From contig JAGXTA010000071.1 of NCBI GenBank assembly GCA_018333535.1, forward strand, positions 35,100 to 99,099: a stretch of 64,000 nucleotides of DNA, written 5' to 3'. The first letter of the stretch is position 1; each line of letters begins with the position of its first letter. Shown here piece after piece: positions 32,181-59,683 of the stretch. Made by a program: the position numbers and the translations under genes. Source of the DNA: Deltaproteobacteria bacterium. Lineage in GTDB: Bacteria; Desulfobacterota; BSN033; UBA1163. The notes under the pieces are model-generated. The model was given only the letters and a program-made list of their open reading frames with translations, made no database searches and was not told the origin of the DNA.

Positions 32181-32214
32181 AAATGGAATAATGGAATAGT
32201 GGAATAATGGAAAA

Positions 32215-34572: not shown

Positions 34573-35502
34573 ATGGCAATCCAAATATTTTCCCTCCTTA
34601 TCATACTGCCTCTCCTTCTTGGAATCTTCTCTTGCGGACGCTCTGATCAGCTAGAGCCTAAATCAAAAACCAATTCGCCGCCTGTAATCAGGTCGGCTAC
34701 GATTTTACCGGAGAATCCCACGCGGGAAAAAGACCTTGCCGTGACTGTTCAGGGGGAGGACCCGGACCAGGACCCCATCACCTACATCTACCAATGGGTT
34801 AAAAACGATGAAGAGATGGTAGGAGAGAAGATGAATATCCTAAGAAGCGGAACTTTTAAAAAAGGGGATATCCTACAAGTTAAGGTGGTGCCCTCCGATG
34901 GCAAGGTGGAAGGAAAGCCTTTTTTGTCAAATCCGGTAAAAGTCCTTAATTCTCCACCGATTGTTCAGGAAGTGAGAATCGAACCGAAAGTTGCTTCTGC
35001 AAACGAGGATTTAAAGGCGGTCGTCAAAGGGTTTGATCAGGATGGGGATTTTATCTATTACGCCTACAAATGGGAAAAGAGCGGGATGCTCATACCGGAA
35101 GAAGGTAAGGAGATATTGGAACAAAATCGATTCAAAAAAGGAGACTCCATTACTGTCATTGTGACTTCGGATGATCGGGATGTAACAGGCGCTCCCAAAA
35201 AATCGGATGCAGTCATCATATCCAACAGCCCTCCCATCATTGTTTCATCCCCACCAACTGCTGTAGAGAAATCGACCTATCTCTATCAGGTCAAAGCAAA
35301 TGACCCTGACAATGATCCCGTGACCTTCGTTTTAAAATCAGGGCCAAAGGGAATGGAGATTGATAAAAATACTGGACTCATCCGCTGGGAGATTCGGAAG
35401 GAAGACAAAGGAACCCACCAGATAGAGATTGAAGCTTCTGATAACGAAGGAGCAAGAAGCGCTCAACGATACCTTTTGAATGTTGAATTCAGACCACAAT
35501 AG
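34573..35502 (+). CDS. lipoprotein with three tandem roughly 95-aa Ig/cadherin-like repeats
   Basis: It has a signal peptide with the lipobox LGIFSC. There are three internal repeats, each starting SPP(V/I)(I/V), and the last resembles a cadherin-like/dystroglycan-type domain (NDPDNDPVTF). Confidence 0.6.
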   Translation: MAIQIFSLLIILPLLLGIFSCGRSDQLEPKSKTNSPPVIRSATILPENPTREKDLAVTVQGEDPDQDPITYIYQWVKNDEEMVGEKMNILRSGTFKKGDILQVKVVPSDGKVEGKPFLSNPVKVLNSPPIVQEVRIEPKVASANEDLKAVVKGFDQDGDFIYYAYKWEKSGMLIPEEGKEILEQNRFKKGDSITVIVTSDDRDVTGAPKKSDAVIISNSPPIIVSSPPTAVEKSTYLYQVKANDPDNDPVTFVLKSGPKGMEIDKNTGLIRWEIRKEDKGTHQIEIEASDNEGARSAQRYLLNVEFRPQ

Positions 35503-35585: not shown

Positions 35586-36053
35586 TTATTTTTTCCTTAC
35601 CATTCCCACAAATTCTTTCACATCGATGATCTTGATTCCATGGAACTGTTTGAGGTTTCTCAGGTGGGGATCTCTGGAGACGATGAAGTCGGCTTTGGCC
35701 TCCATGGCACATGCAAGGAATATGTTGTCCGTTGGGTCCTCCTTGATCTTATGAAGGCTGTAGCGGCCTTCGGTGAAAAAAGCCTTCTCAATACCCAAAC
35801 CGATAAACTCATCGATATCCTCTTTTGAAGGTTTAAACTGTTCCAGGATCCGGGGATAATGCAGCACCCGATAGAGCTCTGCCATAATCTCCTTCGATGT
35901 TGCCAGCGTGAACGCCCCATCTGCAATCATTTCCCTGAGCTCTCTGGCCAATTCCCCTCTTGGAAACGCCACACTGACCATCACGCTGGTATCGATGACC
36001 GCCTTAAGCACGGGCACGCCCTTTTGCCCTGACCGTTGTAACTGCCTCATCAA
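35586..36053 (-). CDS. PIN-domain toxin (VapC-like)
   Basis: It has the motifs VIDTSV and DNIFLACAMEAKADFIVSRD. It overlaps the upstream HTH gene. Confidence 0.65.
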   Translation of the reverse strand: MMRQLQRSGQKGVPVLKAVIDTSVMVSVAFPRGELARELREMIADGAFTLATSKEIMAELYRVLHYPRILEQFKPSKEDIDEFIGLGIEKAFFTEGRYSLHKIKEDPTDNIFLACAMEAKADFIVSRDPHLRNLKQFHGIKIIDVKEFVGMVRKK

Positions 36054-36498
36054 TCACCTTGTCGATTTCATCCTGGGGATAGTCCTTAACCCCCTTTGCC
36101 AGCTTGTCCGTTATGTCTCTGAATCTTTGAGACCAGGACTTTTCGGTTTTCGGTCTCATCACCTTCTCCACTTGATGTTTCACAATAATTCCCTCCAGCA
36201 TTTTTTTAACGGCCTGTCTTTCCCCTTCGTCCAGAGCAGAGATCATCTCGAACTGTTCTAAAAGCTCTCGGTCCATGAGCCTGTTAGCTGCGATCCCCGT
36301 GGTTTTGTCAAAAAACATCTCGTCTATGGAAACTCCAAGAGCCTTGGCCAGTCGAGCGCTTACCTCAAGAGTAGGGGAGGACTTATCCGCTTCATATCGC
36401 CTGATTTGAGAGATTGCTACCCCGCTTTGTTTAACCAGTTCTTCCTGTGTTAAGCCTTTTTCTTTTCTGAATCTCGATAGATTCCTTCCAAATGACAT
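36004..36498 (-). CDS. XRE-family HTH antitoxin-like regulator
   Basis: It has a Cro/C1-type HTH (LTQEELVKQSGVAISQIRRYE) and a C-terminal extension. The start is probably MSFGRNL. Confidence 0.6.
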   Translation of the reverse strand: MSFGRNLSRFRKEKGLTQEELVKQSGVAISQIRRYEADKSSPTLEVSARLAKALGVSIDEMFFDKTTGIAANRLMDRELLEQFEMISALDEGERQAVKKMLEGIIVKHQVEKVMRPKTEKSWSQRFRDITDKLAKGVKDYPQDEIDKVIDEAVTTVRAKGRARA

Positions 36499-36661
36499 CG
36501 AAAGTGCCTCCTTTGGTATGCTTGTCTTGGGATCGAATTTCAACACAGGGTTTTGAGAACCCTTCTCAGAGCATGAAGATACCTTTTATGATATTAAACA
36601 TACCTAATTGAGTATTATAAATATTTTAGGTTTAAAGTCAAGGTTTTTCTCTTGACCGGAG

Positions 36662-36878
36662 ACCCCCCTCAGTTAAGGGTGTCATTCCATAAGTCGATAG
36701 GCGGGGCCTGCTGCAGGTCTAACCCCGCCTCCAACATAGTCGGGACAGGCCTCTGGCTCAGGCTCCGCCCCAGAGGGACTCCTGGCCCGGAGGGAAGAGC
36801 CTCTGGCTCGGAGAGAATGTCCCGCCTATCGGTACAGTTAAATTTTATCAGGCATGTTGTGACTCCCCTTAACTGAGG
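36662..36878. repeat. GC-rich (about 65%) 215-bp element with 20-bp terminal inverted repeats and nested inner inverted and direct repeats; either a MITE or a structured ncRNA
   Basis: The terminal inverted repeat is CCCCCTCAGTTAAGGG(T)GTCA versus TGACTCCCCTTAACTGAGGGGG. The inner inverted repeat is CGATAGGCGGG/CCCGCCTATCG, and the direct repeat is GCCTCTGGCTC(A/G)G. Confidence 0.5.
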
Positions 36879-37339
36879 GGGTTAAAACCCTCTCTTTAAA
36901 ATGTTTGACTTTTGTTCTTATTCTATGATTAAATGAGACAAATTTTCACATACGCTCTTTGAAAATCAGGCCCAAAATCGGGAGATTTGAATGAGAAAGG
37001 AGTCCGGTGGGGACGAATGAAAATGGGGGTTGAAAATAGCCAATTCTTACATCAGATTCAATCGTCCCGATGGGACTGTTGTTTTATATTTTCTTCCCAG
37101 CGATGAATCGCTGGGCTATTGTCATGCAGGCCCCCCTGGGGCATTAGAACAATTAAGTTACCGTCCATGTACATAATACCTGTAAATTTTCATACTTCGA
37201 GAGTGACAAACCCATCGTGAAAGTCTTACTATGAAATAAATTCATACCCCATGAGACAATTTTCAGGGTTTTTGGGGGTTTTTAAAAGGAAGGCCCAAGA
37301 CAATCTATTGATTTGATAGGGTTATTTATATTTTTAAAA

Positions 37340-37356
37340 TGGCATATTATTTGCTG
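37340..37356 (+). promoter_or_regulatory. sigma-54 -24/-12 motif (TGGCATATTATTTGCT)
   Basis: GG and GC are separated by 10 nt. It lies only about 16 nt upstream of the fimT-like ATG at 37372. Confidence 0.4.
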
Positions 37357-37371
37357 CAAAATAGGGCTAAA

Positions 37372-37815
37372 ATGAATAGAAGGGGTGTAACCTTACTTGA
37401 GCTGATCATCGTTATGGTGATCATTGGCATTGGAGCGACATTGCTTGCCCCGGGCATCGGTACTTGGATTCCGATTTATCGCTTAAAGGGGGCAACACGA
37501 GATGTGGTTTCGACCTTAAGAACCGCCCAGATGAAGGCAATTTCAATCAATACGGATTATCAGGTAAATTTCTCGAATGCGACGACCTATGTGCTTGAAT
37601 ATAGGAATACACTTGGTGTCTTTGTCACCGAAGGATCACCGCAGACACTCCCTTCGGGAATTCAGTTTACGACCTTTCCAAGGATTTTTCAATTTAATCC
37701 TAATTCTACTGCAAGCCTAACAGGAGCTTTAACATTAACCAACACCAAGGGGAGTACAAGAACCATTACTTTAACCACAGCCACTGGACGGATAAGGGTT
37801 GATCCGCCCTTATAG
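37372..37815 (+). CDS. minor pilin, FimT/GspH-like
   Basis: It begins MNRRG|VTLLELIIVMVIIGIGATLLAPGI, with AQMKAIS following. It is paralogous to 43820-44254. Confidence 0.75.
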   Translation: MNRRGVTLLELIIVMVIIGIGATLLAPGIGTWIPIYRLKGATRDVVSTLRTAQMKAISINTDYQVNFSNATTYVLEYRNTLGVFVTEGSPQTLPSGIQFTTFPRIFQFNPNSTASLTGALTLTNTKGSTRTITLTTATGRIRVDPPL

Positions 37816-38059
37816 GAGCCTATTGAACAAAGGCTAATACACTCTTCGACCGTTCGACAGGCTCAAGGCTCAGAGTGAACGGAGTTTATAAATTGAAATC
37901 ATTTATTTTTTCCTTTCAGCTGAGCTTGTCAAAGCATGAGCTCTTCCTTCGACTTTACTCAGGACATTCGGAAAATAAACCGTTCGTCCTGAGGCTCTCG
38001 AAGGGTGAATGGTACGATCAGAACATGCTTGTTGAGGCATGGAAAGTGGCAGGAGAGAA

Positions 38060-38419
38060 ATGCATTTGAATCAAAAGGGGTTTTCACTTCTCGAAGTTCT
38101 CATCGGCCTGGTTATTTTAGCCATTGGCATCCTTGCCATTACCGGAATGCAGATCACTTCGATCCGGGGGACTTCTTTTAGCAACCGTTTATCCCAGGCA
38201 TCTGTCATTGCACAGGAGGGATTGGAATCTTTAAAAAGTTTGCCCATCAATGATGTCAGATTGAATACGAACGATTACAATGAGCCTGATTCAGGAATTT
38301 TTCAAAGAAGATACCGTTCAGATAGAAATCCCGAATTTGTTACTCTGCGATATACAGTTTCCTGGGTAGAGGATGGATCGACCCGTGAAGTCTCTTTCTC
38401 AACAGTAAAGTCACGGTAG
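38060..38419 (+). CDS. pilV: minor pilin PilV-like
   Basis: It begins MHLNQKG|FSLLEVLIGLVILAIGILAITGMQ. It is paralogous to 44247-44609. Confidence 0.75.
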   Translation: MHLNQKGFSLLEVLIGLVILAIGILAITGMQITSIRGTSFSNRLSQASVIAQEGLESLKSLPINDVRLNTNDYNEPDSGIFQRRYRSDRNPEFVTLRYTVSWVEDGSTREVSFSTVKSR

Positions 38420-38423
38420 TATT

Positions 38424-39317
38424 ATGAATAAAAGACTTTTTAAATCCACAGCAGGCGTTACGCTTATTGAACTTCTCATTGCGCTCGTGGTCAGCGCGAT
38501 TCTTGTTGCAGGAATCTACCGAGTCTTCATTCACCAGCAGAGAACCTATCGCACGCAGGAAGATGTCGCTGACATGCAGCAAAATGTTAGGGTGGCCATA
38601 AACCGGATGATCAGAGAAATCCGCATGGCAGGTTTTGGAGGAAAGAACGAAAATACAAATGGCAATAATGACATCATTAATGTTTTCGGAAATGTAAACA
38701 CTTTTACAAGTATTATCAATCCCGCAAATGATGTGACAGTCGATGGAATCATACACGATCAAATCACTCTGCTGGCGGCTTATGATCAAATTGCAACATT
38801 AGAAGAAGATGTCGTAGCCGGAAGTAATTCCTTTAAGGTTAATTTTACGGGAAACACCAGATTCGATCAACCCTGGAGAAAATATGTATGTATCAACGGC
38901 CGCAATAGCTACGCGATTATTCCCGCTGGTGGAGACACTTTAACTCTGGAGGGAGGAGGAACCCTTAATGAAAACCATTCTGCCGGGGAGCCTGTATTTT
39001 TAGTCAGAGCCATTAGATATGGGTTAAGAATGGATAATGGGACTTCTGTTTTATTTAGAGATCTATACCCTGCGACAGGGGGGAGTCAACGAGTAACTGT
39101 CGCTGAGAATATTGAGGCGCTCCAATTTCGATATGTCCTTGCAGATTCATCAGAAGTAGATACACCTGGAGATCCAAGACAGGTTCGGGGAGTAAGGGTT
39201 ACCCTTACTGCAAGAACCCAGATGAGCGATCCTGAATTAAAGACAGGAGGAGGGTTTCGGAGAAGGACTTTAGTAACCTACATTGATCTGAGAAATCTTA
39301 GAGACGAAACTCCATAA
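38424..39317 (+). CDS. pilW: minor pilin PilW-like
   Basis: It begins with a pilin N-terminus (TAGVTLIELLIALVVSAILVAGIYRVF), then QQNVRVAINRMIREIRMAGFGG. It is paralogous to 44752-45573. Confidence 0.75.
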   Translation: MNKRLFKSTAGVTLIELLIALVVSAILVAGIYRVFIHQQRTYRTQEDVADMQQNVRVAINRMIREIRMAGFGGKNENTNGNNDIINVFGNVNTFTSIINPANDVTVDGIIHDQITLLAAYDQIATLEEDVVAGSNSFKVNFTGNTRFDQPWRKYVCINGRNSYAIIPAGGDTLTLEGGGTLNENHSAGEPVFLVRAIRYGLRMDNGTSVLFRDLYPATGGSQRVTVAENIEALQFRYVLADSSEVDTPGDPRQVRGVRVTLTARTQMSDPELKTGGGFRRRTLVTYIDLRNLRDETP

Positions 39318-39493
39318 AGTCATTAATCAGTCCATAATTATTTGGACACTTCAGATATAATCCCTCCTAACCTCCCTTTGCCAAAGGGAGGAATTCCCCT
39401 CTTTGGAAAAGAGGGGGGAGGGGAGATTTTCAGAAGAGTATATCTGCTTAATTATTGACCCCTTAGTATTTAGGGGAAGGAGGGAGAACAGGA

Positions 39494-39961
39494 ATGTTTT
39501 TAAAAAAATCGCACCGTTTTTTGGCAGATCAGCAAGGAGCCTCATTTATTATTGCTCTTTTAATATTGTTGGTTCTCACATTGATCGGGATCAACGCTAT
39601 CAACACCTCTGTTTTTGAAACGAACATAGCCGGAAATGAAAGGCTTTATAATAATGCCTTTTTTGTGGGCGATGCAGGGGTCGATTATTTTTTTGGAACG
39701 TGTAAAGCATTCATTCCTATACCACAGACCTCGGGAACCATCCAAAGTAATGTGGTGGGATTAAATTTGGGTGGAAGCCGTTTTAATGTAAACTGGAGAA
39801 AGATAAGGGAAGAGACGGGTCCGCCTAAAAAGGTTGAATTTTTAGTGATCTCAGAAGGGGTTGCACCAAACTTTCCGATTGCTGGCAGAGTGACGATAGA
39901 GGCTATTATCGAAGGTGTGGACGCAGAACCACTTCCTGAATATCCTGGGGGGTCAACATGA
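39494..39961 (+). CDS. pilX: minor pilin PilX-like
   Basis: It has the PilX N-terminal domain (QQGASFIIALLILLVLTLIGINAINTSVFETNIAGN). It is paralogous to 45586-46017. Confidence 0.7.
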   Translation: MFLKKSHRFLADQQGASFIIALLILLVLTLIGINAINTSVFETNIAGNERLYNNAFFVGDAGVDYFFGTCKAFIPIPQTSGTIQSNVVGLNLGGSRFNVNWRKIREETGPPKKVEFLVISEGVAPNFPIAGRVTIEAIIEGVDAEPLPEYPGGST

Positions 39962-42900
39962 AAAAACAATTATTTTTCTTCTTAATTTTCATTTTTTTAG
40001 CTCCGGTCATTACCTACGGACAATCCGACCTCTTTGAGATCAGAACGCCGAATGTAATGATCATCTTCGACACATCCAGTTCAATGAATATGGATGTAAA
40101 TGGGGTTTTGGTTCCATCGGGAAAGGCCAAAGGAGTGGATGGTGATCCCAACAAAGATTACCAGGGAGGAGGAGATCACCCCAACAGCAAACTCTTCATT
40201 GCCAAACAGGCACTCGGAAACGCTCTCAAAGGTCTTGAAAATATAAACCTGGGCTTGGCAACCTACGGACAGAGAAAACAGGAAAAGTGGAGGGGTTATT
40301 TTAAAAAATGCAAACCTGCCCAAGTATCAAGAAACTGGTGCGAGAAAAGATATTGGAGATGGAGACAGATCGTCAATGCTGTTGATGGCCCAAGATATGC
40401 CAATGATTTTTCCAAAGACAGCTTTAAAGATGCCTGGGGGGTTCCTCGTTCAAATGTAAGCGAAGGATCCCGATTCTTTAGGACGATCAGTCTTTACGAT
40501 AAACCCGTAAGTTCAATTCCCCCACATAGTAATTTAAAGACAAAATCATATGATTGGTGGTATACGGTCACGGAGATAAAATATAACGCCGAATATAACT
40601 GGTATACCTATAAATATGTTTCAGATCCACTGACTTATGACACTTATGAAGAGACAACCAAAACGCTCGACCCCTGCGGCTCTTGTAGTGCGGACAAAGA
40701 GAATGATCCGTTTCCAATAATATGGCCTGACGGAGCCAACCCTCAATGGGAAACTTACTTTAAGAATGATAGCAGAGGTGTCGCATATAAGGATGAATAT
40801 GATAAACCTTTCGGGAACAATCCTGGTAAAAAAAATTGGTGGGATTGCAATGCCAAAACTCAGTCTGCAAAACCAGTATGTTGGGATCCAATTGTACCTG
40901 TATATGATTATGGATGGAGAACCTATACAGGGATAAAGTCAAGTGTTTGTGATGATACTAAGGACCAATCTGACGGATGGAGGTATGTAAGTGGTTGTTA
41001 TGATTCTTCCGAATATTATTATCCAATCGGAACATCGCCTGCCTTATCTTTTCATTCAGTCGATCGGCCGCATACGTGGAGTTATTTTAAGATTACTTTA
41101 GGTTCCCCAGACACATGGAAGGAATCAAATCAACAGAATCCTTTCTACCCTGGTCCTGCTGGAGGCCCTGGAGTAAATCCCAATAACTTCCTTTTCATCA
41201 ACTTCCCGGAGACCGATGATGCATCAAATGATTACAAGGTGAAAAAGGAGATTCTAAAATGGCTCGATTTAATGCCTGTTCAGAATCCAGAACCACCTAA
41301 TCGATGGCATACAAAGTTGCCCCTAAAAGCAGATAGTATTACGTCAAACACCATCGAATCTCTTTTTACTCCTTTAGCCGATACCCTTGTTCAAGCTAAA
41401 AAGTATTTCGAAGATTACATCTTTAAGTATAACGGAGGAGATGACGCAAGCAAATCTAACTGCAGAGGTAATTACGTCATCCTTATGACGGATGGCCTGG
41501 AGAGCGCCAGATTTAAAGGGCCAAATGACCCGGATTATGATGCGGCCGCGAATGCGGCCAAAGAGTTGATTGATTTGGTCAAAGATAAAGATGGCAAGTC
41601 TTGTGGAGTTAAAACGTTTGTGATTGGATTCGGCGTTGGTTTGGGTGATAAGCCTGAAGTATTAGGAAATATTGCAAATAAAGGAGGCACGGGAAGCGCC
41701 TATTTTGCAAAGGATTTGTCACAGTTAACAGAGGCTTTTAAAAAGATTTTCCAACAAATTGGCCCCGGGTATAGCCGATCTAATCCAGTTGTGGCCAGTG
41801 CGAGAGACAGGATTTACAGAGGTTATTTTAACCTCCCAGGCTGGGAAGGCCATTTAATTGCTTTCGCTTTGAGTACGGATGGAAGCATAATAGACCAAAA
41901 TAATGACAAAAAGATCGATGAAAAAGATACACTATGGGATGCGGGGTATTCTAAAGATATTGACAAGAGCGCGAGGGCTACGGTTTACACCTGGGATAAG
42001 GACAAGAATCCAAATTTATTTGAATTTAATGAATCGAAAGCAGGGGCACTAAAAGATTTAATCAACTCACCTGAAGAGGACATCAATGAGGATGGGAAGA
42101 AAGATATCGAAGATGTTAAAGCCATCATTCGATTCATACTGAATCCCGGGTCAGATGGAGGAAAGTATAAGGGAAGCAGATCCACCACTTGGAGCCTCGG
42201 AGATATTTACCATTCAACGCCATTGATTGTGGGGAAACCTCCTTTTAATATTCCAGATGATCTGTTTCCTAAAAAGTACTCACAGTTTAAAGAAGATCAG
42301 AAGAACAGACTAACTACAATTTATGTAGGCGTCAATGATGGAATGCTCCATGCCTTTGATGCAAAGGATGGTAAAGAGAAGTTTTCAATCATCCCCAAAA
42401 ACCTTCTTGGAAAATTAAAAGAAATTAGAAAAGCATATCAATTCTATCTGGACTCAAGTCCGAGGGCTTATGATGTCTACTTTTCAAAGGGAAAAAATAA
42501 ATGGATGACTGTTCTCCTCAGCGGCCTAAGGGGTGGTGGAAATTATTATTTCGCACTCGATGTTACTGATCCGGATAAACCGGAAGTGCTATGGGAAATG
42601 ACCGATCCTGGCATAGGATATACCTGGTCCAGACCTGAAGTTGGAAGGGTGAAAATCGGGGGGCAAGAGAAGTTTGTAGCCTTTGTTGGAGGAGGATACT
42701 CTGATCCGAAGGAATCGAAGTATGATAATATTGGAAACTCCTTTTATGTCATCGACGTTGAAGACGAAGGGAAGATTCTGAAGAAATTCGATGTCGGAAA
42801 TAAATCGAATAAAGTCCCTGCCGGCGCCTCTGCTTTCGATAAAGATGGCGATGGTCGAATCGACAGAGTCTATTTTGGGGATATTCAGGGAACCTTATGG

Positions 42901-43503
42901 AAAATAAAAATCGACGGTGAAGAGGATGTTAATAAGTGGGGGCTGGTAAAACTATTTGAACCTGCCGTAAAAAATGCAATATTCTATCCCCCAGCAGTAA
43001 CCAAAAATAATCAGGGAAAAGTTTTGGTCTATTTTGGGCAGGGGGATGAGTTAGATCTGTTTGAGAAAACGAGAACATACTTTTTCTATGAAATCTGGGA
43101 TAAGGGTGATTCAGGAGAAAAGATTTGGGAAAAAGAGTTTACGAACAAAGGTGAAAAGGTATTGGCCAGCCCTGCTGTGGGGAATAATATAGTGTATTTC
43201 ACCACCTGGCAATATACAGGAATCGAGGCGGATTGTGGGGCAGGTACAGGGAGGTTATACGGATTAACTACTACCAAGGAAGGGATTGAAGGAGGAATGG
43301 CAGGATTGTTTTACGATATAAGCGGAACCAAATTAGACAAACCAGTTGAATCCATTGATCTTGGTAAAGGAATTCCGTCTGCTCCAGTAGTCATTCCCGG
43401 GAGAGTTTATATCTCTACCAGTCTGAATGCTAATAATATCATAAGCATCCCAATTCCTCCTTGGGGAAGAGGCAAGCTAAAATCCTGGAGAGAGGTTTTT
43501 TAA
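39958..43503 (+). CDS. pilY1: PilY1-like pilus tip adhesin (N-terminal vWA/MIDAS domain plus C-terminal PilY1 beta-propeller), 1181 aa
   Basis: It has a signal peptide and a MIDAS-like IIFDTSSSM. The C-terminal third is collinear with the second copy (GDIYHSTP, YFGDIQGTLWK, SAPVV) and has a Cys-rich middle region. Confidence 0.8.
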   Translation: MKKQLFFFLIFIFLAPVITYGQSDLFEIRTPNVMIIFDTSSSMNMDVNGVLVPSGKAKGVDGDPNKDYQGGGDHPNSKLFIAKQALGNALKGLENINLGLATYGQRKQEKWRGYFKKCKPAQVSRNWCEKRYWRWRQIVNAVDGPRYANDFSKDSFKDAWGVPRSNVSEGSRFFRTISLYDKPVSSIPPHSNLKTKSYDWWYTVTEIKYNAEYNWYTYKYVSDPLTYDTYEETTKTLDPCGSCSADKENDPFPIIWPDGANPQWETYFKNDSRGVAYKDEYDKPFGNNPGKKNWWDCNAKTQSAKPVCWDPIVPVYDYGWRTYTGIKSSVCDDTKDQSDGWRYVSGCYDSSEYYYPIGTSPALSFHSVDRPHTWSYFKITLGSPDTWKESNQQNPFYPGPAGGPGVNPNNFLFINFPETDDASNDYKVKKEILKWLDLMPVQNPEPPNRWHTKLPLKADSITSNTIESLFTPLADTLVQAKKYFEDYIFKYNGGDDASKSNCRGNYVILMTDGLESARFKGPNDPDYDAAANAAKELIDLVKDKDGKSCGVKTFVIGFGVGLGDKPEVLGNIANKGGTGSAYFAKDLSQLTEAFKKIFQQIGPGYSRSNPVVASARDRIYRGYFNLPGWEGHLIAFALSTDGSIIDQNNDKKIDEKDTLWDAGYSKDIDKSARATVYTWDKDKNPNLFEFNESKAGALKDLINSPEEDINEDGKKDIEDVKAIIRFILNPGSDGGKYKGSRSTTWSLGDIYHSTPLIVGKPPFNIPDDLFPKKYSQFKEDQKNRLTTIYVGVNDGMLHAFDAKDGKEKFSIIPKNLLGKLKEIRKAYQFYLDSSPRAYDVYFSKGKNKWMTVLLSGLRGGGNYYFALDVTDPDKPEVLWEMTDPGIGYTWSRPEVGRVKIGGQEKFVAFVGGGYSDPKESKYDNIGNSFYVIDVEDEGKILKKFDVGNKSNKVPAGASAFDKDGDGRIDRVYFGDIQGTLWKIKIDGEEDVNKWGLVKLFEPAVKNAIFYPPAVTKNNQGKVLVYFGQGDELDLFEKTRTYFFYEIWDKGDSGEKIWEKEFTNKGEKVLASPAVGNNIVYFTTWQYTGIEADCGAGTGRLYGLTTTKEGIEGGMAGLFYDISGTKLDKPVESIDLGKGIPSAPVVIPGRVYISTSLNANNIISIPIPPWGRGKLKSWREVF

Positions 43504-43624
43504 GCTTTTTAGCTTAGAAAAATTTTCATACCCCGTAGAAGCAATTTTTGTGAAGAACCACTCTCATAAGGGGGGTGATATTGAAAATAGCCCAATAAAT
43601 CAATGGGTTAAAGAAATTTTGCCG

Positions 43625-43643
43625 AATGGCATAGTATTTGCTA
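43625..43643 (+). promoter_or_regulatory. sigma-54 -24/-12 promoter (TGGCATAGTATTTGCT)
   Basis: GG at 43628-29 and GC at 43640-41 are separated by 10 nt. It lies about 180 nt upstream of the second minor-pilin operon. Confidence 0.5.
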
Positions 43644-43758
43644 TATAAATAATCAAAGAATATAGACCGAAAAAGCCAAACCACGAGCGATTGTGGGGCG
43701 GAAAGCCACGGATCCCAGGAATGGCGGGATGGCCGGGTTGCCGAAGTCGAAACTTAGG

Positions 43759-43800
43759 AAACCGGGTTACCGTGGCTGAAAAGGTAATCCGGTTTTTGCT
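43759..43800 (+). terminator. terminator-like hairpin within the 5' leader (possible attenuator or riboswitch expression platform)
   Basis: The stem AAACCGGGTTACC pairs with GGTAATCCGGTTT and is followed by TTTTT. An upstream GCCACGG (43705-11) can alternatively pair with CCGTGGC (43770-76). Confidence 0.4.
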
Positions 43801-43819
43801 TTAAGAGAAGGAGTTAAAT

Positions 43820-44254
43820 ATGAAGAACCAAAAAGGAGTGACATTGATCGAATTGATTATCGTAATAGTAATCATTGCCATCGGAGCAACTTTGATGGCT
43901 CCTGGAATCGGTGCCTGGATGCCTCATTACCGGTTGCGAAGCGCCACAAGGGATATCGCTTCAACAATGAGAATTGCACAGATGAAAGCCATTTCAAACA
44001 ATCTGACCTATCAGATCGCTTTCGATCCTCCCAACAGAAGTTACATCCTTCAGTATGATACGGGCGGCATCATTGTCAATGATGGAGGTACCCAGGTATT
44101 GAACAACGGAGTGCAATTCAATACGACATTTGCAGGAAATATTGCAGCTTTTCGCCCGGACTCAACCGTGACCGGTGGAAATGTGAGTTTGATTAATACG
44201 AAAGGCTCTCAGAAGACGATCTGGTTAGCCGGAAGGAGGATCAGGATTGAATAA
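43820..44254 (+). CDS. minor pilin FimT/GspH-like, copy 2
   Basis: It begins MKNQKG|VTLIELIIVIVIIAIGATLMAPGI. Confidence 0.75.
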   Translation: MKNQKGVTLIELIIVIVIIAIGATLMAPGIGAWMPHYRLRSATRDIASTMRIAQMKAISNNLTYQIAFDPPNRSYILQYDTGGIIVNDGGTQVLNNGVQFNTTFAGNIAAFRPDSTVTGGNVSLINTKGSQKTIWLAGRRIRIE

Positions 44255-44609
44255 AAAAGGGTTCACACTTATTGAAGTTCTGGTTGGCCTGGTTATCCTG
44301 GCTATTGGCCTTTTAGCCATTGCAGGAATGCAACTCACCTCTGTGAAAGGGAACTTCTTTTCGAGCAATTTGACCCAGGCCTCTGTTCTGGCCCAGGACC
44401 GTCTCGAAGTTTTGAGAAGTCTGGCATGGGGTCATGACGATTTAACAGGGGGAACACATAATGAGGGGACGATCCCGAACACGATCTTTACAAGGGAGTA
44501 TACTGTCGCTGTCATTGTGGGGACAACGATGCTCGATATTACCGTGACCGTGCGATGGAGGGATGATACCGATCATTCCGTATCATTCTCCACGGTCCGA
44601 TCTCAATAA
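44247..44609 (+). CDS. pilV: minor pilin PilV-like, copy 2
   Basis: It begins MNKKG|FTLIEVLVGLVILAIGLLAIAGMQ. Confidence 0.75.
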   Translation: MNKKGFTLIEVLVGLVILAIGLLAIAGMQLTSVKGNFFSSNLTQASVLAQDRLEVLRSLAWGHDDLTGGTHNEGTIPNTIFTREYTVAVIVGTTMLDITVTVRWRDDTDHSVSFSTVRSQ

Positions 44610-44751
44610 GGAGGTTGTGCCTTAGACATTTGCCCTTCGACAGGCTCAGGACGAATGGCTAAGCGATTTATTTTAAACATCCCGTAGTCCGTTCGTGGTG
44701 AGGCTCTCGAACCATGAACGGAATTACAACCAAGTCTCAAAGGAGAAGAGG

Positions 44752-45573
44752 ATGAACAAAAGAGGACTGACGCTTATCGAACTTCTCGTTGTTCTGGTCA
44801 TTAGCACTATCCTGATTGCAGGAATCTATCGGACCTTCATCCATCAACAGCATACCTATACGGTCCAGGAACAGGTCGTCGATATGCAGCAGAATGTGAG
44901 GATGGCCATCAATCAGATGGTCAGGGAGATCCGGATGGCAGGTCTCGGAGGACGGGATGCAACAAAATGGGGCGCAAGTGGAATGCACGGGGTCTATAAG
45001 AATATAGTCACCCCTTCGGACGATGGGCAATCGATAACCATCGTGGGCGCCTTTCAAGAGATGACCTTCCTTACAGCCAATGCTGAAGCAGGAGTGACGA
45101 TCAAGATCAATGTCAACGATGCTTCGGGTTTTAATACAGGAGGGCTTCAATATCTATGCATGAATGGAACTGAAACCGTCAGGATTAAAAATATTGTAGG
45201 CAATGAGATCGAACTCTTCGACCCCCCGACGGAGAACCATTTTGCAAATGAGCCAGTATTTCGAGTAATGGCTATCACTTATTCAATTGGAGATTTTGAA
45301 GGAAAACGCTCCCTGATGCGAAATGACAATATAGACCCCGCCCAGCCTTTGGCTGAGAATATCGAACTTCTTCAGTTTACCTATACGCTCGCTGATGGAA
45401 CAGTCTTCGTGGGCACCGTGCCCGGAAATCGGCGAGACGAGATACGGATGGTTCAGGTGAACATTACGGCGATGACCGATCGAAACGACCCTGAATTAGG
45501 AGGGGGAGGAGACGGTTTCAGAAGGAGGACGCTTACCTCCAACATCCAGTTGAGGAATTTATCGTCAATATGA
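44752..45573 (+). CDS. pilW: minor pilin PilW-like, copy 2
   Basis: It begins MNKRG|LTLIELLVVLVISTILIAGIYRTF, then QQNVRMAINQMVREIRMAGLGG. Confidence 0.75.
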   Translation: MNKRGLTLIELLVVLVISTILIAGIYRTFIHQQHTYTVQEQVVDMQQNVRMAINQMVREIRMAGLGGRDATKWGASGMHGVYKNIVTPSDDGQSITIVGAFQEMTFLTANAEAGVTIKINVNDASGFNTGGLQYLCMNGTETVRIKNIVGNEIELFDPPTENHFANEPVFRVMAITYSIGDFEGKRSLMRNDNIDPAQPLAENIELLQFTYTLADGTVFVGTVPGNRRDEIRMVQVNITAMTDRNDPELGGGGDGFRRRTLTSNIQLRNLSSI

Positions 45574-45585
45574 GAAGGAGTTGAT

Positions 45586-46017
45586 ATGGAGTCAAAAAGG
45601 ATAATGGATAATCAAAAAGGAATTGCGCTGGTGATCGCCCTGGTCATGCTGCTGGTATTGACCCTGGTGGGGTTGAGTGCAGTCAGTATGACCAACTTTG
45701 AGACGAACATTTCAGGCAACCAGAGGGTTTATAATCTGGCCTTTTATACAGCGGACGGAGGAACCGAAAACTTCCGCGGAAGAGTCTCCGGAGGCGAGTT
45801 TATCTATTCCGCAGTCACTACCGGTTCATATCAGGTCACCATTGGGGGAAATGCCTGCAATGTCTCGTATAACAAATGGAATCGGAAAGATGCAGAAGGG
45901 GATTTCGTCGTATTTAAGATAAATTCCGAGGGGAGAGCCCCTTTTCCTTCGACAGGAAGGGTGACGATCGAATCGGTTATCGAAGTGCTGACGACCATAC
46001 AGCCGGGATATAACTAA
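45586..46017 (+). CDS. pilX: minor pilin PilX-like, copy 2
   Basis: It has the motif QKGIALVIALVMLLVLTLVGLSAVSMTNFETNISGN. Confidence 0.7.
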   Translation: MESKRIMDNQKGIALVIALVMLLVLTLVGLSAVSMTNFETNISGNQRVYNLAFYTADGGTENFRGRVSGGEFIYSAVTTGSYQVTIGGNACNVSYNKWNRKDAEGDFVVFKINSEGRAPFPSTGRVTIESVIEVLTTIQPGYN

Positions 46018-46046
46018 GGCATACTATGAAGAGGAGGTATGGAGGT

Positions 46047-46733
46047 ATGAAAAAGATGGTACTTATTAAATCAATGATATATGCATGTTTGTATTTTATT
46101 TTTGTTGGCGCTGTCTTTGCCCAGGAAGAACTAAAAACACTGTCTGACGACCCTTTTTACCAAGCAAAGCGGCAGACGGAGACAGCCAAATTAAACGCCA
46201 GCTTTGACCCGTTAGAGAGGGCAACCCTTCATACAGGGTATGCCGAAGAGAGATTGGCAGAGGTGAAGGCGGTGGTGTCTAAGGGTAGGCATGAGTTTGC
46301 AGGTGACCTATTAAAGAATTACGAAACATCTATAAACGGAGCCGTGGATGAAATTAACAGGGCTCAGGCACAGGGAAGAGATGTAAGTGAAGCTCTATCG
46401 GCTGTTGAAAGATCCACCACGAAACATACCGAGGTCTTGACCGATTTGCTTGGTAAAGTGCCCGAAGAAGCCAGACCTGCTATCAAACGCGCCATAGAGG
46501 TCTCCAAACGCGGAAGGAACACCGCCCTTGATAGGCTGGAAAGGATTCAAAGAGGCGAAATCCCTGCTGGCAAACCAGAAGGAGTTGGACCACCAGGGAA
46601 ACCCGAAAGGCCAGAAAGGGTGGAGAGGCCGGGGAGATCAGGTATACCAGGAGGTATTGATAGGCCGGGAGGATTTGGTGGTCCTGGCGGTGGAAGACCG
46701 GGTGGAGGTCCACCTGGTGGTAGAGGAAGATAG
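46047..46733 (+). CDS. secreted hypothetical protein with a helical N-domain and a Gly/Pro/Arg-rich collagen-like tail
   Basis: It has a signal peptide (MKKMVLIKSMIYACLYFIFVGAVFA|QEE) and a C-terminal low-complexity tail (PGKPERPERVERPGRSGIPGGIDRPGGFGGPGGGRPGGGPPGGRGR). It has no counterpart in operon copy 1. Confidence 0.55.
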   Translation: MKKMVLIKSMIYACLYFIFVGAVFAQEELKTLSDDPFYQAKRQTETAKLNASFDPLERATLHTGYAEERLAEVKAVVSKGRHEFAGDLLKNYETSINGAVDEINRAQAQGRDVSEALSAVERSTTKHTEVLTDLLGKVPEEARPAIKRAIEVSKRGRNTALDRLERIQRGEIPAGKPEGVGPPGKPERPERVERPGRSGIPGGIDRPGGFGGPGGGRPGGGPPGGRGR

Positions 46734-46832
46734 CATAGCAATAACCGCCACAGCACATAACAAATCGCTCAAGGGGATCCGATCTTGCGACCGCACCCCT
46801 TAGCTTTTACGAAGGCCCTAAGGAGGAATAAA

Positions 46833-49800
46833 ATGAAAAAGTTTTTCTTAATGATCTTATCACTTGTCTTATTCATTCCATTTCAGGTCTCTGCCCAGGA
46901 TGACCTCTTCCAAATCAAAACTCCAAATGTGATGATCATCTTCGACACTTCCAACTCGATGGACCAAAAGCCTGATGGATGGTCACAGGGCTCTGGTAAT
47001 GTGAGGGTTGATAGCGAGGGCAAAATTGTTAGCGCTCCGAATGGGACAGTATATAATTTCGAAGGAGGGGGTAATCATCCGAATAGCAAACTTTATCAAG
47101 CAAAGTTGGCCTTAAAGGAGATCATTGATACGGTCGTGAAAGACAGGGTCAATTTAGGTTTTTCCACTTATGCTCAATTGAAAACAGAAAATAGACGTGG
47201 TTATTATAAAAGAGACAAGCGTAATTACAAGGCAGATGAGTGGAGGTGGGATAAACTTTACTGGAGATTCAATAATTATAAGCATACCTATACGGCGACG
47301 AGTTTTTCATCGAACAGTTTTAAAGATTTTACTGGGTATACCCATACGGGTGTGAGCAAAAATTATACTTTCTCCTATTCCCATACTTTCCATAATTCGA
47401 AAAAAAACAATAACAAGAATGAACCCCCACCCCATCCCCCCGGAACTTACACCGCTAATTTAAAATATACTGTTACCAATATTGTCTATAATGCGGAATA
47501 TAACTGGTATACCTATTCTTACGAATCGGATGCGCACGATCATTATGAGGGGCAAAATCTATCCAAGTTTAAGACCAGCGATGCTCTGATCGATTGCAAA
47601 TCCGAGTTCCCAAAAGATTGGCCATCAGGAGGTTGGAAGACCTACCACCCAGGAGATAGCGAATATGATGCCAACCCAACAAAATGGGAGTGCAAAGGTC
47701 CAACAAAGATAGCTGGTTATGATTACTGGACAGTCCAGTGGACGTGGTTACCATTTAATAACTCTACAAGTTGCCCATCCACCTCTGGTTCAGATAATTT
47801 GACAGATCCCGATCCAAATAATCAATACACGAAATGGTATCTGGTGGATCCAAACGACCCTGCCCTCTCATCGACGCATACGGTGAAGGTGACTCAGAAG
47901 AATTGTTACGATTGGTCAACCTACTATTATCCTGCGGATGGGTCGACCAATAAACCCCATACCTGGAGCTATTTTAAGATTAGCGGTGGAACCTGGCAAG
48001 TAAACAATCAAACCCCCAATTACTACCCTTCAAAGGATGGTTCCGGAAAGTTTAATAACACCCCGGGTGCATTCGATAACCACTTTTTCTTCGTCAACTT
48101 CCCTGACGATAAGGACTCAAATTTTAAGGATTCTGACAGAACCGTCAATAAAAATTTGATTAACTCATTCTTAGATTTAAACCCCGTTCAGAGCCCTGAG
48201 ACCGGAAGATATTGGACAAAATTGCCAATTCATGAGAGTTATGGAAAAAAGGGTTTGACATCAAATACACAGGCCTCCACATCAACTCCACTTGCAGACT
48301 CCCTGGCATGGTCTTTTTTATACTTCAATGACTACATCTTTAATTATAACGGGGGCGATTCATCCAGTCAGGAAAAGTTTGGTGAGACACTATGTCGTGG
48401 GAATTACGTCATTCTTCTCACCGATGGCCTGGAGAGTTGCAGGCTCAAAGGGGGTCTTCCGGACTACGATGCAGCTCCCCAGGAGGCTGCCAACCTGCTG
48501 GGTATTAATGTCAAAACATTTGTCATCGGCTTCGGAGAGGATATCGTCGGGAATCAGGCCCTCAAAAACATCGCAGTGGCTGGCGGAACCGAAAAGGCTT
48601 ACTTCGCCGCTAATATTAATGAGTTAAAAGCGGCCCTCGCTTCTATTTTTCAAGCCATTACCGGTCAGTATTATGGGAGGTCCAATCCCGTCATCACCCG
48701 GGCAAGGGACCGCCTCTACAGAGGCAATTTCGATATTCGGGATGGAGACTATCTGGGCCATCTGATGGCATGGGATGCGGACAAGCAGACCGGCGTTCTT
48801 GCCCCTGATTTTGCGTGGGATTCCGGCGAAGAGATCACGAAAGCCGGAAGGGGAGTGGTTTATACCTGGACCGATGAAGGGCTAAACCCCACCAGAAAAG
48901 AATTTAAAGTGAGTGAATCCTCCCTTTACCCATTTGTCAACCCGTTGAATGAGGATATCGACGGAGACCTGGATGTTGACAGCGACGATGCTAAAACAGT
49001 GATAAATTTTACCCTGCTTCCGGAATATGACAGCGGAAAGTATAAAGGGAAGAGGGCGCTCAATGTGGATATAAAGGGGACGGCTTACCCCTCCTGGAAA
49101 TTAGGCGACATTTACCACTCCACGCCTGTGGTCATAGGAGAGCCCGCCTTCTTATTCAAAGATAATGATTACACCGCATTCTACAATACGAATAAGAACC
49201 GCGAGATGATGATTTATGTGGGCGCCAATGATGGGATGCTCCATGGATTCAAAAATAGCGATGGGAGAGAGCTTTTTTCCATCATTCCTAAAAATCTCCT
49301 TGGAAAGTTGAAAGATTTGAGATCGACCCATGATTTCTATGTCGATTCAAGCCCCAAAGCTTATGATGTCTATTTTACGAGCGAATCAAAATGGAAGACC
49401 GTTCTCATCTCAGGACAAAGAGGCGGGGGAGCCTACTATTTTGCCGCCGATGTCACCAAGCCGAATGATCCCAAGATCCTCTGGGAATTGACCCACGGCA
49501 ATATGGGCGATACATGGGCCAAGCCTGATATCGGAAAGATCAAGGACGGAGGGGATACAAAATTTGCGGCCTTCTTGGCAGGCGGTTACTCCACCACAGA
49601 CAACAAAGGAAACAGCTTCTACATTGTCGATATCGAAACAGGAACAATCCTCAAAAGTTTTACAGTAGGAAACGCTACAAATAAGATCCCTTCAAACGTG
49701 ACCGCCTATGACGCCGACGAAGACGGATATATTGACTATATCTACTTCGGGGATATCCAGGGGACCCTCTGGAAGGTGGATGTCCGGAGCTCTAATAAAA

Positions 49801-50378
49801 ATGACTGGACTCTCTATGAGTTTTTCAAACCGGTCAACCCGAAATTGAGGCCCATCTTTTACTCCCCGGCGGTAGTGAAAAACAACGAAGGAAAGATCCT
49901 TGTCTTCTTCGGGAGCGGCAATGAATTGGGATTGACCACATTGACCACAAATTATTTCTATGAGATTGAAGATGAGGGAGCAACGGGAAAGGAGAGCTGG
50001 AGCAAGACCCTGGAGGACGGAGAGAAGGTCCTTGCCTCTCCTGCGGTGCTCAATAATGTCGTCTACTTTACCACATGGGTCTATAAGTCAAGCGGAGAAT
50101 TCTGTGGCGCAGGCGAGGGAAGACTCTGGGGATTGAAGGTTTCGAAATTAGGTGAAAAGGGCGGAGGCGCCGGTCTGGTCACCCTGGACACGGACACTGG
50201 GAAGTGGAAGGCTCCACAGGAGTATATTTCACTTGGAGCAGGGATCCCTTCGGCCCCGGTCGTCACAAACGGAATGGTCTATATCGGCACAAGCTTGAAT
50301 GCCAACAGGGTCATTCAGGTTCCCATTCCGCCACAGGCTGTGGCAAGGATCAAATCCTGGAGAGAAGTGGTGAGATAA
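46833..50378 (+). CDS. pilY1: PilY1-like pilus tip adhesin, copy 2 (1180+ aa)
   Basis: An AGGAGG RBS precedes it. It has a signal peptide, IIFDTSNSM, and C-terminal propeller motifs shared with copy 1. Confidence 0.8.
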   Translation: MKKFFLMILSLVLFIPFQVSAQDDLFQIKTPNVMIIFDTSNSMDQKPDGWSQGSGNVRVDSEGKIVSAPNGTVYNFEGGGNHPNSKLYQAKLALKEIIDTVVKDRVNLGFSTYAQLKTENRRGYYKRDKRNYKADEWRWDKLYWRFNNYKHTYTATSFSSNSFKDFTGYTHTGVSKNYTFSYSHTFHNSKKNNNKNEPPPHPPGTYTANLKYTVTNIVYNAEYNWYTYSYESDAHDHYEGQNLSKFKTSDALIDCKSEFPKDWPSGGWKTYHPGDSEYDANPTKWECKGPTKIAGYDYWTVQWTWLPFNNSTSCPSTSGSDNLTDPDPNNQYTKWYLVDPNDPALSSTHTVKVTQKNCYDWSTYYYPADGSTNKPHTWSYFKISGGTWQVNNQTPNYYPSKDGSGKFNNTPGAFDNHFFFVNFPDDKDSNFKDSDRTVNKNLINSFLDLNPVQSPETGRYWTKLPIHESYGKKGLTSNTQASTSTPLADSLAWSFLYFNDYIFNYNGGDSSSQEKFGETLCRGNYVILLTDGLESCRLKGGLPDYDAAPQEAANLLGINVKTFVIGFGEDIVGNQALKNIAVAGGTEKAYFAANINELKAALASIFQAITGQYYGRSNPVITRARDRLYRGNFDIRDGDYLGHLMAWDADKQTGVLAPDFAWDSGEEITKAGRGVVYTWTDEGLNPTRKEFKVSESSLYPFVNPLNEDIDGDLDVDSDDAKTVINFTLLPEYDSGKYKGKRALNVDIKGTAYPSWKLGDIYHSTPVVIGEPAFLFKDNDYTAFYNTNKNREMMIYVGANDGMLHGFKNSDGRELFSIIPKNLLGKLKDLRSTHDFYVDSSPKAYDVYFTSESKWKTVLISGQRGGGAYYFAADVTKPNDPKILWELTHGNMGDTWAKPDIGKIKDGGDTKFAAFLAGGYSTTDNKGNSFYIVDIETGTILKSFTVGNATNKIPSNVTAYDADEDGYIDYIYFGDIQGTLWKVDVRSSNKNDWTLYEFFKPVNPKLRPIFYSPAVVKNNEGKILVFFGSGNELGLTTLTTNYFYEIEDEGATGKESWSKTLEDGEKVLASPAVLNNVVYFTTWVYKSSGEFCGAGEGRLWGLKVSKLGEKGGGAGLVTLDTDTGKWKAPQEYISLGAGIPSAPVVTNGMVYIGTSLNANRVIQVPIPPQAVARIKSWREVVR

Positions 50379-51860: not shown

Positions 51861-52147
51861 ATCTATCTTCATTGTTGAGGAGAACCCCAATTAGGGAAAA
51901 GTGCCTACAATAATATCGAACATGAGACGAGAAGTAAATGATTCATTTTCGTAAGTCTTCGTAGAAATTTCTTTCCAGGTGGATAAATATTGACCAATTT
52001 TCAACCATTCATTATAATAGAGGCAATCGTATTTCGTGAAATTCATGAGACATTCTAATAGATTAAGTGATTAAGATATTTAATGCTTTTGGCACTTATT
52101 TTGCTTATTAACTTTCCGATAGGTGACGGACTCGCAAAAAGTAAAAA

Positions 52148-59671: not shown

Positions 59672-59683
59672 AAGGGGGAGGAG

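Follow-up and report, generated by a model that had tools for sequence, protein, structure and literature searches.

The 64-kb window studied here (the whole stretch of 64,000 nucleotides from a deltaproteobacterial contig, JAGXTA010000071.1) contains two adjacent, paralogous sets of minor pilin and PilY1 genes, and in this window only the second of them (set 2) is preceded by a riboswitch of the cyclic di-GMP-I (c-di-GMP-I) clan and a terminator. We consider it fairly probable (about 60%) that the two are alternative tip or priming sets for one pilus, and that set 2, which lies behind an activator-dependent promoter and a putative OFF riboswitch, therefore depends on an activator signal together with low c-di-GMP. 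The part of this reading that concerns alternative sets with asymmetric riboswitch control is held more firmly than the whole, and the OFF polarity and the nature of the ligand less firmly. The original prediction for this DNA had proposed two alternative priming or adhesin complexes for one pilus. That proposal agrees with the complete, intact and apparently functional paralogous sets beside a single pilMNOPQ cluster, their retention in relatives, and the N-terminal divergence of the PilY1 proteins, but it had missed the regulatory asymmetry.

The two collinear clusters are located on the + strand, at 37372-43503 (set 1) and 43820-50378 (set 2). The region 37339-50378 has eleven intact + strand open reading frames (ORFs), ten of them pilus ORFs and one extra. 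Each set encodes a GspH/FimU-like (H), a PilV, a PilW-like and a PilX minor pilin, followed by a PilY1 protein of about 1181 residues. The paralogs share 55% (H), 48% (V), 43% (W), 42% (X) and 44% (Y1) identity, each over about the full length. Start codons are the likely ones, chosen by reading the leader peptides. For set 1, they are at 37372, 38060, 38424, 39494 and 39958, giving H1 (37372-37815, leader MNRRG/VTLLE), PilV1 (38060-38419), PilW1 (GspJ-like, 38424-39317), PilX1 (39494-39961) and PilY1-1 (39958-43503). For set 2, they are at 43820, 44247, 44752, 45586 and 46833, giving H2 (43820-44254, leader MKNQKG/VTLIE), PilV2 (44247-44609), PilW2 (44752-45573), PilX2 (45586-46017) and PilY1-2 (46833-50378), with the extra gene at 46047. 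The coordinates and families of the two predicted operons, with paralogous FimT/GspH-like, PilV, PilW, PilX and PilY1 proteins, are thereby confirmed, except that the likely starts of PilV1, PilW2 and PilY1-2 are corrected to 38060, 44752 and 46833. All ORFs of both copies are intact, and neither copy is pseudogenized.

A class III prepilin signal has a short basic leader, Gly at position -1, and a hydrophobic N-terminus with Glu at position +5, except in the PilX/GspK-like member. Four proteins in each set carry such a signal, with X1 and X2 lacking Glu+5. Pfam identifies the N_methyl prepilin motif (PF07963) in H1, V1, W1, H2, V2 and W2, weak GspH matches in H1 and H2, and PilX_N (PF14341) in X1 (E 4.8e-13) and X2 (E 2.2e-13). 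The NCBIfam model for PilV (TIGR02523) gives 50.6 bits for V1 and 51.8 bits for V2, slightly below its cutoff of 52.2. Sub-threshold matches to XpsH, XpsI, GspH and GspJ raise the possibility of type II secretion pseudopilins, which is ruled out by PilX_N, the PilY1 propeller and the pilMNOPQ context.

An Rfam scan of the whole window finds one family above its gathering score, an aptamer of the c-di-GMP-I clan (CL00126, GEMM-I) at 43666-43746 on the + strand (RF03167, 65.3 bits against a gathering score of 59, E 3.7e-13). The aptamer is on the same strand as set 2, starting 24 nt past the end of the sigma-54 motif (see below) and ending 74 nt before the ATG of the first gene. The same scan finds no aptamer before set 1 in the window. 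Nine relatives had their DNA upstream of set 2 read, and an orthologous aptamer is present 5' of the first gene of set 2 in eight of them (among the loci L004, L005, L006, L008, L009, L034 and L035; the named relatives are metagenome-assembled genomes of Thermodesulfobacteriota). The eight orthologous leaders score 35.6-74.2 bits, each exceeding the cutoff of its own model. The aptamers of L008 (122-256) and L034 (7596-7727) have an extra GC-rich hairpin of about 55 nt just before GAAAGCC, and still pass the cutoff of the standard model.

The aptamer is directly followed by an intrinsic terminator, ACCGGGTTACC-N11-GGTAATCCGG-TTTTT (43761-43797, + strand). A GC-rich hairpin with a run of four to six T residues is found in all eight orthologous leaders, with wobble and compensatory changes in the stem (for example T-A to C-G in L005). 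The terminator loop, CCGTGGC (43770-43776), is exactly complementary to GCCACGG (43705-43711), the 5' strand of aptamer helix P2. This loop sequence is invariant in the six leaders that were aligned, and CGTGGC is present in all eight. In folding calculations, the terminator forms alongside the aptamer when the aptamer helix is enforced, and this is also the unconstrained minimum-energy fold in four of the six leaders. For transcripts truncated just ahead of the terminator's 3' arm, an antiterminator is the minimum-energy fold in all six, 1.2-10 kcal/mol better than the aptamer fold. The antiterminator joins GCCACGG to CCGUGGC, and in it the 5' arm of the terminator is base-paired to the aptamer's 3' strand.

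This layout is probably that of a transcriptional OFF switch, in which high c-di-GMP would shut off set 2, because the terminator is predicted to coexist with the aptamer and its conserved competitor uses the aptamer's own P2 strands. The opposite polarity, with c-di-GMP promoting read-through and set 2 being the adhesin set of the high-c-di-GMP (surface or biofilm) state, appears unlikely. It does have a precedent in pilA1 of Clostridioides difficile, where a c-di-GMP riboswitch directly controls a type IV pilus (T4P) structural gene; that riboswitch is of class II and an ON switch, and it acts on a major pilin in a Gram-positive organism, with no choice between paralogous sets. Moreover, the terminated and antiterminated folds of the full-length leader are only 0-3.5 kcal/mol apart, and ON versus OFF is not settled by thermodynamics alone. 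On the other hand, the terminator does not overlap the aptamer, and the sole conserved competitor of the terminator is the pairing with the P2 strands, which is the arrangement of an OFF switch.

The two PilY1 proteins have the same architecture, with a signal peptide, a von Willebrand factor A (vWA) domain that bears a MIDAS (metal ion-dependent adhesion site) and is split by a β-rich insert, and a C-terminal β-propeller with a Ca-binding loop. The propeller (T4P_PilY1, PF05567) is matched with E 4e-31 in copy 1 and 5e-29 in copy 2, and it matches that of Pseudomonas aeruginosa PilY1 (3HX6) with E 2e-38 by sequence and E 4e-18 by Foldseek. The EF-hand-like Ca-binding loops, DKDGDGRID in copy 1 and DADEDGYID in copy 2, align with DNNSDGVAD of 3HX6. 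At the N-terminus of both proteins, the signal peptide is followed by IIFDTSxSM. The MIDAS is complete, and its residues (D38, S40, S42, T485 and D531) are invariant across 101 homologs; the Pfam VWA match reaches only 21 bits, below the cutoff of 23.8. Both the shared IIFDTSxSM motif and the shared C-terminal propeller had been recognized in the original prediction.

An AlphaFold2 model of PilY1-2, built on 101 sequences, has a mean predicted local distance difference test (pLDDT) score of 86.9. After the signal peptide, the first strand and helix of the vWA domain are followed by a β-rich insert of about 320 residues (about 115-430), then by the rest of the vWA domain with its alternating helices and strands (433-610), a linker and the propeller. 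The identity between the two copies is highest in the propeller and lowest in residues 250-350 or thereabouts (9-20%, with many gaps) and in the linker (651-750). The two copies thus diverge as had been noted, although not in a separate central domain; the modeling that had been suggested for this region places the differences in the insert within the N-terminal vWA fold and in the linker. As the copies are most alike in the propeller and least alike in residues 250-350, the part predicted to dock on the minor pilins appears conserved and the exposed N-terminal half diverged. It is probably the insert that decides the binding specificity of the pilus tip. A Foldseek search with the whole PilY1-2 model returned mostly propellers and did not identify the fold of the insert. 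Neither PilY1 has a Pfam match to DUF4114.

The pair of sets is old. Six related contigs (L004-L007, L034 and L035) share the layout of lipoprotein gene, set 1, set 2 and tetratricopeptide repeat (TPR) gene, and their PilY1-2 proteins are 57-78% identical to that of the window. Among the best 120 PilY1 homologs, 101 are nearer copy 2 (nearly all of them at least 52% identical to it) and 19 are nearer copy 1, and PilY1-2 belongs to a tight ortholog group. A neighbor-joining tree separates two clades, one with the copy-2 proteins from the window and from five relatives, the other with copy 1 from the window, L005 and L007. The split of the two PilY1 types therefore predates these genomes. The tandem duplication first proposed is thus not supported in the sense of a recent event, and the sets are better described as ancient adjacent paralogs. 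In L006 the first position is occupied by a third PilY1 type. In addition, several relatives have a third, more distant cluster (PilY1 about 27% identical) between pilR and the lipoprotein gene (L004 1-477, L005 1-102, L011 3639-8520, L012 3829-8509, L034 1-329, and L035 1-454), which is not found in the window.

The age of the pair bears on whether the two sets are functionally redundant back-ups, with regulatory differences that drifted neutrally and no distinct adhesive roles. Both sets do keep the MIDAS, the Ca loop, the propeller and four pilins, the promoter of the first cluster is evolutionarily labile (see below), and clusters 1 and 3 of Myxococcus xanthus each support pilus formation (PMC7541494, PMC9109919). 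Redundancy is nonetheless somewhat less probable than the opposite switch polarity, since the pair has been kept since before the genomes diverged, at 42-55% identity and in separate ortholog clades. The divergence is moreover concentrated in the vWA insert, and in eight of the nine loci it is set 2 specifically that retains the riboswitch. The two sets are presumed to be specialized as different adhesins.

The ligand of the riboswitch is likely to be c-di-GMP. The nucleotides that contact the ligand in aptamers of the c-di-GMP type are G20, A47 and C92, in the numbering of the Vc2 aptamer. In the alignment to RF03167, the window aptamer has G at model position 10 (which we tentatively take to be G20 of Vc2), A at position 37 and, in the 3' strand, a C preceding CGGG. 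The G stands where cGAMP (cyclic GMP-AMP)-sensing RNAs have A, and the A stands where the consensus of the GGC variant has G. Two of the orthologs, in L008 and L034, score best with the standard c-di-GMP-I model. These three features together make c-di-GMP the likely ligand. They also make it improbable, more so than redundancy of the sets, that the ligand is a different one (of the GGC variant class, or a cGAMP-like dinucleotide) that ties set 2 to another signaling pathway, even though the best model for the window aptamer is RF03167 rather than RF01051, and Geobacter has cGAMP-sensing GEMM-I variants located upstream of genes for pilus assembly (PMC6456294).

The sequence TGGCAT-N5-TTGCT is found at 37340 and 43627, before the two sets. 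Sigma-54 promoters are recognized by GG at -24 and GC at -12 (TGGCAC-N5-TTGCW), and the spacing at both sites is canonical. For the looser pattern TGGCA-N6-TTGC, the window has four occurrences where 0.34 would be expected, and none of 100 shuffles gives as many as four. The copy-2 promoter (TGGCATAGTATTTGCT, 43627-43642, + strand) has its motif kept before copy 2 in all nine of the relatives read. About 100 bp upstream of the motif is an element with the consensus TTCAYACCC-N6-8-CAATTTT, a candidate enhancer for activator binding. It is found before copy 2 in the window (43525-43548, + strand), L004, L005, L007, L034 and L035, and before copy 1 in the window (TTCATACCCC-N7-CAATTTT, 37241-37263, + strand) and L006. 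A site matching the consensus of integration host factor (IHF) (AATCAATGGGTTA, 43598-43610, + strand) lies between the upstream element and the copy-2 promoter, and within the window is present at copy 2 only. The order at set 2 is therefore upstream element, IHF-like site, sigma-54 promoter, riboswitch and terminator, an architecture conserved across relatives, with a leader of about 165-170 nt that has an AAGGAG ribosome-binding site. The original prediction had stated that each copy carries the same sigma-54 motif; this is correct for the letters of the motif, but in the window set 2 alone has the riboswitch and terminator, and the regulatory design differs.

The upstream element was not found at the other two sigma-54 motifs of the window (14434 and 52090), which suggests a dedicated activator for the pilin promoters; two candidate sigma-54 response regulators are encoded nearby, at 32873-34246 and 56530-57906. 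The motif at 52090-52105 (TGGCACTTATTTTGCT, + strand) is upstream of a block of receiver-PatA_N (FrzS-like), MglB-like, MglA-like and CheW-like genes, and is kept in relatives (L004 14864, L005 14776, L006 15037, and L007 14489). The motif at 14434-14449 (TGGCATAAAGTTTGCT, + strand) is inside a polysaccharide-synthesis cluster, where a glycosyltransferase gene has its 3' end at the motif and a gene for a 208-residue winged-helix (HTH_24) protein follows.

The promoter region of set 1 is organized differently. The copy-1 motif (TGGCATATTATTTGCT, 37340-37355, + strand) ends 17 nt before the ATG at 37372, and both the window and L006 keep the upstream element and the motif at set 1 with TTGC ending just 17-18 nt before the ATG. 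A sigma-70-like promoter, TTGATA-N16-TAAAAT (37313-37340, + strand, 10 of 12 positions matched), overlaps this motif. In L010 and L013, the sigma-54 motif of set 1 is followed by a gap of about 35 nt with an AAGGAG site, and in seven other relatives (L004, L005, L007, L011, L012, L034 and L035) the sigma-54 motif is replaced by a near-consensus sigma-70 promoter, TTGACA-N17-TAnAAT. As the architecture of set 2 is kept while the promoters of set 1 differ among relatives, control of set 2 is conserved and that of set 1 labile, with the promoter type at the sister operon turning over quickly. It is very unlikely that this strain has a decaying or silent copy 1 and uses only the riboswitch-controlled copy 2, for although its TTGC lies closer to the ATG than in L010 and L013 and it has insertions (37816-38059 and 39318-39493) where relatives have overlapping or closely spaced genes, its five ORFs are intact, PilY1-1 keeps the family-invariant residues, the overlapping sigma-70-like promoter gives a workable leader of about 25 nt, the promoter geometry is conserved in L006, and copy 2 has a repeat insertion as well.

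The favored reading of alternative sets can be described as follows. Each set would provide four minor pilins and a PilY1 adhesin, and both would probably serve the nearby PilMNOPQ machine. The two PilY1 proteins would share the MIDAS-bearing vWA core, the Ca loop and a propeller that docks on the minor pilins. Set 2 would be transcribed from the sigma-54 promoter with its upstream activator site, IHF site and -24/-12 elements. At low c-di-GMP, GCCACGG of the aptamer would pair with the downstream CCGUGGC and transcription would read through. With c-di-GMP bound, the aptamer would be locked, the terminator would form, and set 2 would be off. Set 1, which has no riboswitch in the window, would be expressed from the overlapping sigma-54/sigma-70 promoter region, independently of c-di-GMP at the RNA level. 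The sets are wired differently, and the composition of the pilus tip would thus change with the c-di-GMP state. A more specific version can be put forward only tentatively, namely that the riboswitch swaps tips at the RNA level by selecting which PilY1 set caps the pilus, set 2 at low c-di-GMP with the activator and set 1 when c-di-GMP rises, and that this selection is conserved in a clade of uncultured Thermodesulfobacteriota.

Several observations weigh against the reading of alternative sets under c-di-GMP control. The riboswitch asymmetry between set 1 and set 2 is not universal among relatives, because the set 1 of L035 is itself preceded by a c-di-GMP-I aptamer of the standard type with a terminator (1536-1615), the second aptamer of that relative, and L007 has neither the riboswitch nor H2. 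The OFF polarity is deduced from thermodynamic folding, by which the two full-length folds are nearly isoenergetic. The best Rfam model is that of the GGC variant of c-di-GMP-I, and the ligand could be a molecule other than c-di-GMP. If copy 1 were transcribed from its sigma-54 motif, the leader would be no longer than about 7 nt, given the 17 nt between TTGC and the ATG, and the route of transcription and translation at this copy is puzzling. A second pilus machine could exist elsewhere in the genome. Finally, the source organism is uncultured, and the model is known here from sequence and folding.

Sets of this type are already known, as Myxococcota are well documented to have multiple minor pilin/PilY1 sets, their genomes averaging two PilY1 proteins each (PMC13190605). 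In M. xanthus, clusters 1-3 (FimU-PilV-PilW-PilX-PilY1; Treuner-Lange 2020, Xue 2022, Mahanta 2026) likewise are several paralogous sets for one T4aP machine, with conserved PilY1 propellers, divergent N-terminal halves and differences in expression. Clusters 1 and 3 (PilY1.1 and PilY1.3) are both functional and are regulated oppositely by the NtrC-like HsfA (PMC9109919, PMC7541494). An NtrC-type (sigma-54) activator behind differential expression and the idea of interchangeable pilus tips have been stated before (PMC7541494, PMC9109919, PMC13190605), and PilY1 proteins are already known to have both vWA/MIDAS domains and the Ca loop (PMC13190605). There are also differences. The M. xanthus clusters are at separate loci, whereas the sets here are directly adjacent. 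Both PilY1 proteins here carry a vWA/MIDAS domain with a large insert and have no Pfam DUF4114 match, unlike M. xanthus. One set here is riboswitch-gated, and the M. xanthus papers describe no such control (the word riboswitch does not occur in PMC13190605).

The fimU-pilVWXY1E operon of P. aeruginosa is similar in the logic of its gene order, the homologous propeller (3HX6), the Ca loop and the N-terminal vWA/MIDAS domain. It is a single set and includes PilE, which is absent from the clusters of the window. The P. aeruginosa operon is regulated by FimS-AlgR, unlike the sigma-54 promoter and riboswitch here, and c-di-GMP is linked to it through PilY1 signaling, not through RNA control of pilY1.

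GEMM RNAs were tied to pilus assembly genes of Geobacter in 2007 (PMC1950547), and many of those sense cGAMP (PMC6456294). The GEMM RNAs of Geobacter and other delta-proteobacteria resemble the one described here in RNA clan, in their position in the 5' leaders of T4P genes, in their terminator-type platforms and in the bacterial group, which is related (PMC1950547, PMC6456294). Their targets are pilM, pilO, pilQ, cytochromes and others, whereas the target here is one of two paralogous tip operons. In contrast to the many cGAMP-sensing examples, the aptamer here has the c-di-GMP-type G and follows a sigma-54-dependent promoter. In the titles and abstract openings of full-text literature that combines riboswitch, c-di-GMP, minor pilin and PilY1, no riboswitch on a minor pilin/PilY1 operon is mentioned. 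What appears new is therefore not the gene sets themselves but that one of two paralogous sets is coupled, in a conserved manner, to a c-di-GMP riboswitch that follows a sigma-54 promoter.

The choice among several PilY1/minor pilin sets has so far been addressed only in Myxococcus, by way of a protein phosphorelay, and an aptamer, a terminator and a sigma-54 promoter within less than 200 nt would be a compact and conserved answer to this choice. If the proposed reading is correct, c-di-GMP, the main motile-to-sessile signal, would be tied to what the pilus adheres to and not to how much of it is made, and the c-di-GMP-I regulon would gain targets. The tentative tip swap, if true, would be the first case of c-di-GMP control over the identity of the pilus tip, as opposed to control over pilus abundance or motor activity. 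To a specialist on pili, the model would be plausible more than startling. Should the polarity or the ligand differ, the locus would still be a natural example of paralogous operons separated by RNA-level control.

The extra gene of set 2 (46047-46733, + strand) lies between pilX2 and pilY1-2, where the original prediction had placed it, and encodes a DUF5667 protein (Pfam, E 2.8e-18). The predicted structure, another of the models that had been suggested, has a hydrophobic N-terminal signal or transmembrane helix, a confident five-helix DUF5667 bundle, and a Gly/Pro/Arg-rich tail (GEIPAGKPEGVGPPGKPERPERVERPGRSGIPGGIDRPGGFGGPGGGRPGGGPPGGRGR) that is predicted to be disordered (pLDDT below 50 at residues 195-217). 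The tail had been called collagen-like, a description that does not hold because no sustained Gly-X-Y register is found in it. NCBIfam gives no match for the protein, and a Foldseek search with the model returned generic helical bundles alone, none with E at or below 0.001. The gene is absent from the pilX2-pilY1-2 junction in L004-L009, L034 and L035, and three homologs (61-79% identical) are in non-pilus contexts, among toxin-antitoxin genes, near an AbiEii gene and beside a transposase. These observations speak against the gain of a secreted pilus component by copy 2. The gene appears to be a lineage-specific insertion that is probably co-transcribed with set 2, and no evidence of a pilus role was found among the loci examined.

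Structured insertions are present between other genes of both sets. An inverted-repeat insertion between H1 and V1 (37816-38059, + strand), which resembles repetitive extragenic palindromic (REP) or miniature inverted-repeat transposable (MITE) elements, has a folding z score of -4.5, a palindromic insertion between W1 and X1 (39318-39493, + strand) has -3.4, and an inverted-repeat insertion between V2 and W2 (44610-44751, + strand) has -2.1. The last is of the same repeat family as that at 37853, and the elements at 37853/37986 and 44636 have the common core TTCGACAGGCTCAGGAC. In relatives, the genes that flank such insertions overlap or nearly touch (H and V overlap in L004). None of the three insertions has a clear terminator tail, and they could affect polarity or mRNA stability. 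A weak match to mir-3059 (39370-39420) is taken as a chance or repeat hairpin.

Pfam searches and a reading of the neighborhood over the window place both clusters inside a large T4aP locus. Pilin-family genes are found at 7122-8557 (+ strand), consisting of two adjacent Pilin-family (PF00114) genes for proteins of 150 and 147 residues (7122-7574 and 7716-8159) and a ComP_DUS-like minor pilin gene (8162-8557). Because the two PF00114 genes are adjacent, the major pilin, too, may exist as two tandem paralogs in this locus. The gene for the prepilin peptidase PilD (29579-30340) is followed by genes for a HAMP histidine kinase and a sigma-54 response regulator (30405-34246). On the 3' side of the two sets are, in order, genes for a TPR protein (- strand) and for receiver-PatA_N, MglB-like, MglA-like and CheW-like proteins, then a PAS kinase and a second sigma-54 regulator, and then pilMNOPQ (58074-63787). 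The window thus has two histidine kinase/sigma-54 regulator pairs. The linkage of both sets to the genes of the T4aP machine (pilD and pilMNOPQ) is also seen in relatives, and the same DNA occurs in the metagenome contigs JGI 3300001813 and ENA ERZ27300255.

Upstream of set 1 is a conserved gene for an immunoglobulin (Ig)-domain lipoprotein (34573-35502, + strand), with the signal ...LLGIFSC and He_PIG/Big_9 Ig-like domains, which is directly 5' of set 1 in every relative examined. From its position after pilR, this protein was considered as the major pilin, which is ruled out by its having the lipoprotein signal LLGIFSC instead of a prepilin leader. Between this gene and set 1, the window has a PIN/helix-turn-helix toxin-antitoxin pair (35586-36546, - strand) and about 700 bp of repeat-rich non-coding DNA (36547-37240), in comparison with about 170-300 bp in relatives. 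An Acido-Lenti-1-like hairpin at 37096-37145 scores 29.2 bits, below the gathering score of 37, and is likewise taken as a chance or repeat hairpin. In the gap between the first histidine kinase and its sigma-54 regulator (32181-32872) is a broken ORF, which has stop codons in each of the three frames. Short repeats of the GGAATA/ATTCC type border it on either side, and its appearance is that of a degraded insertion.

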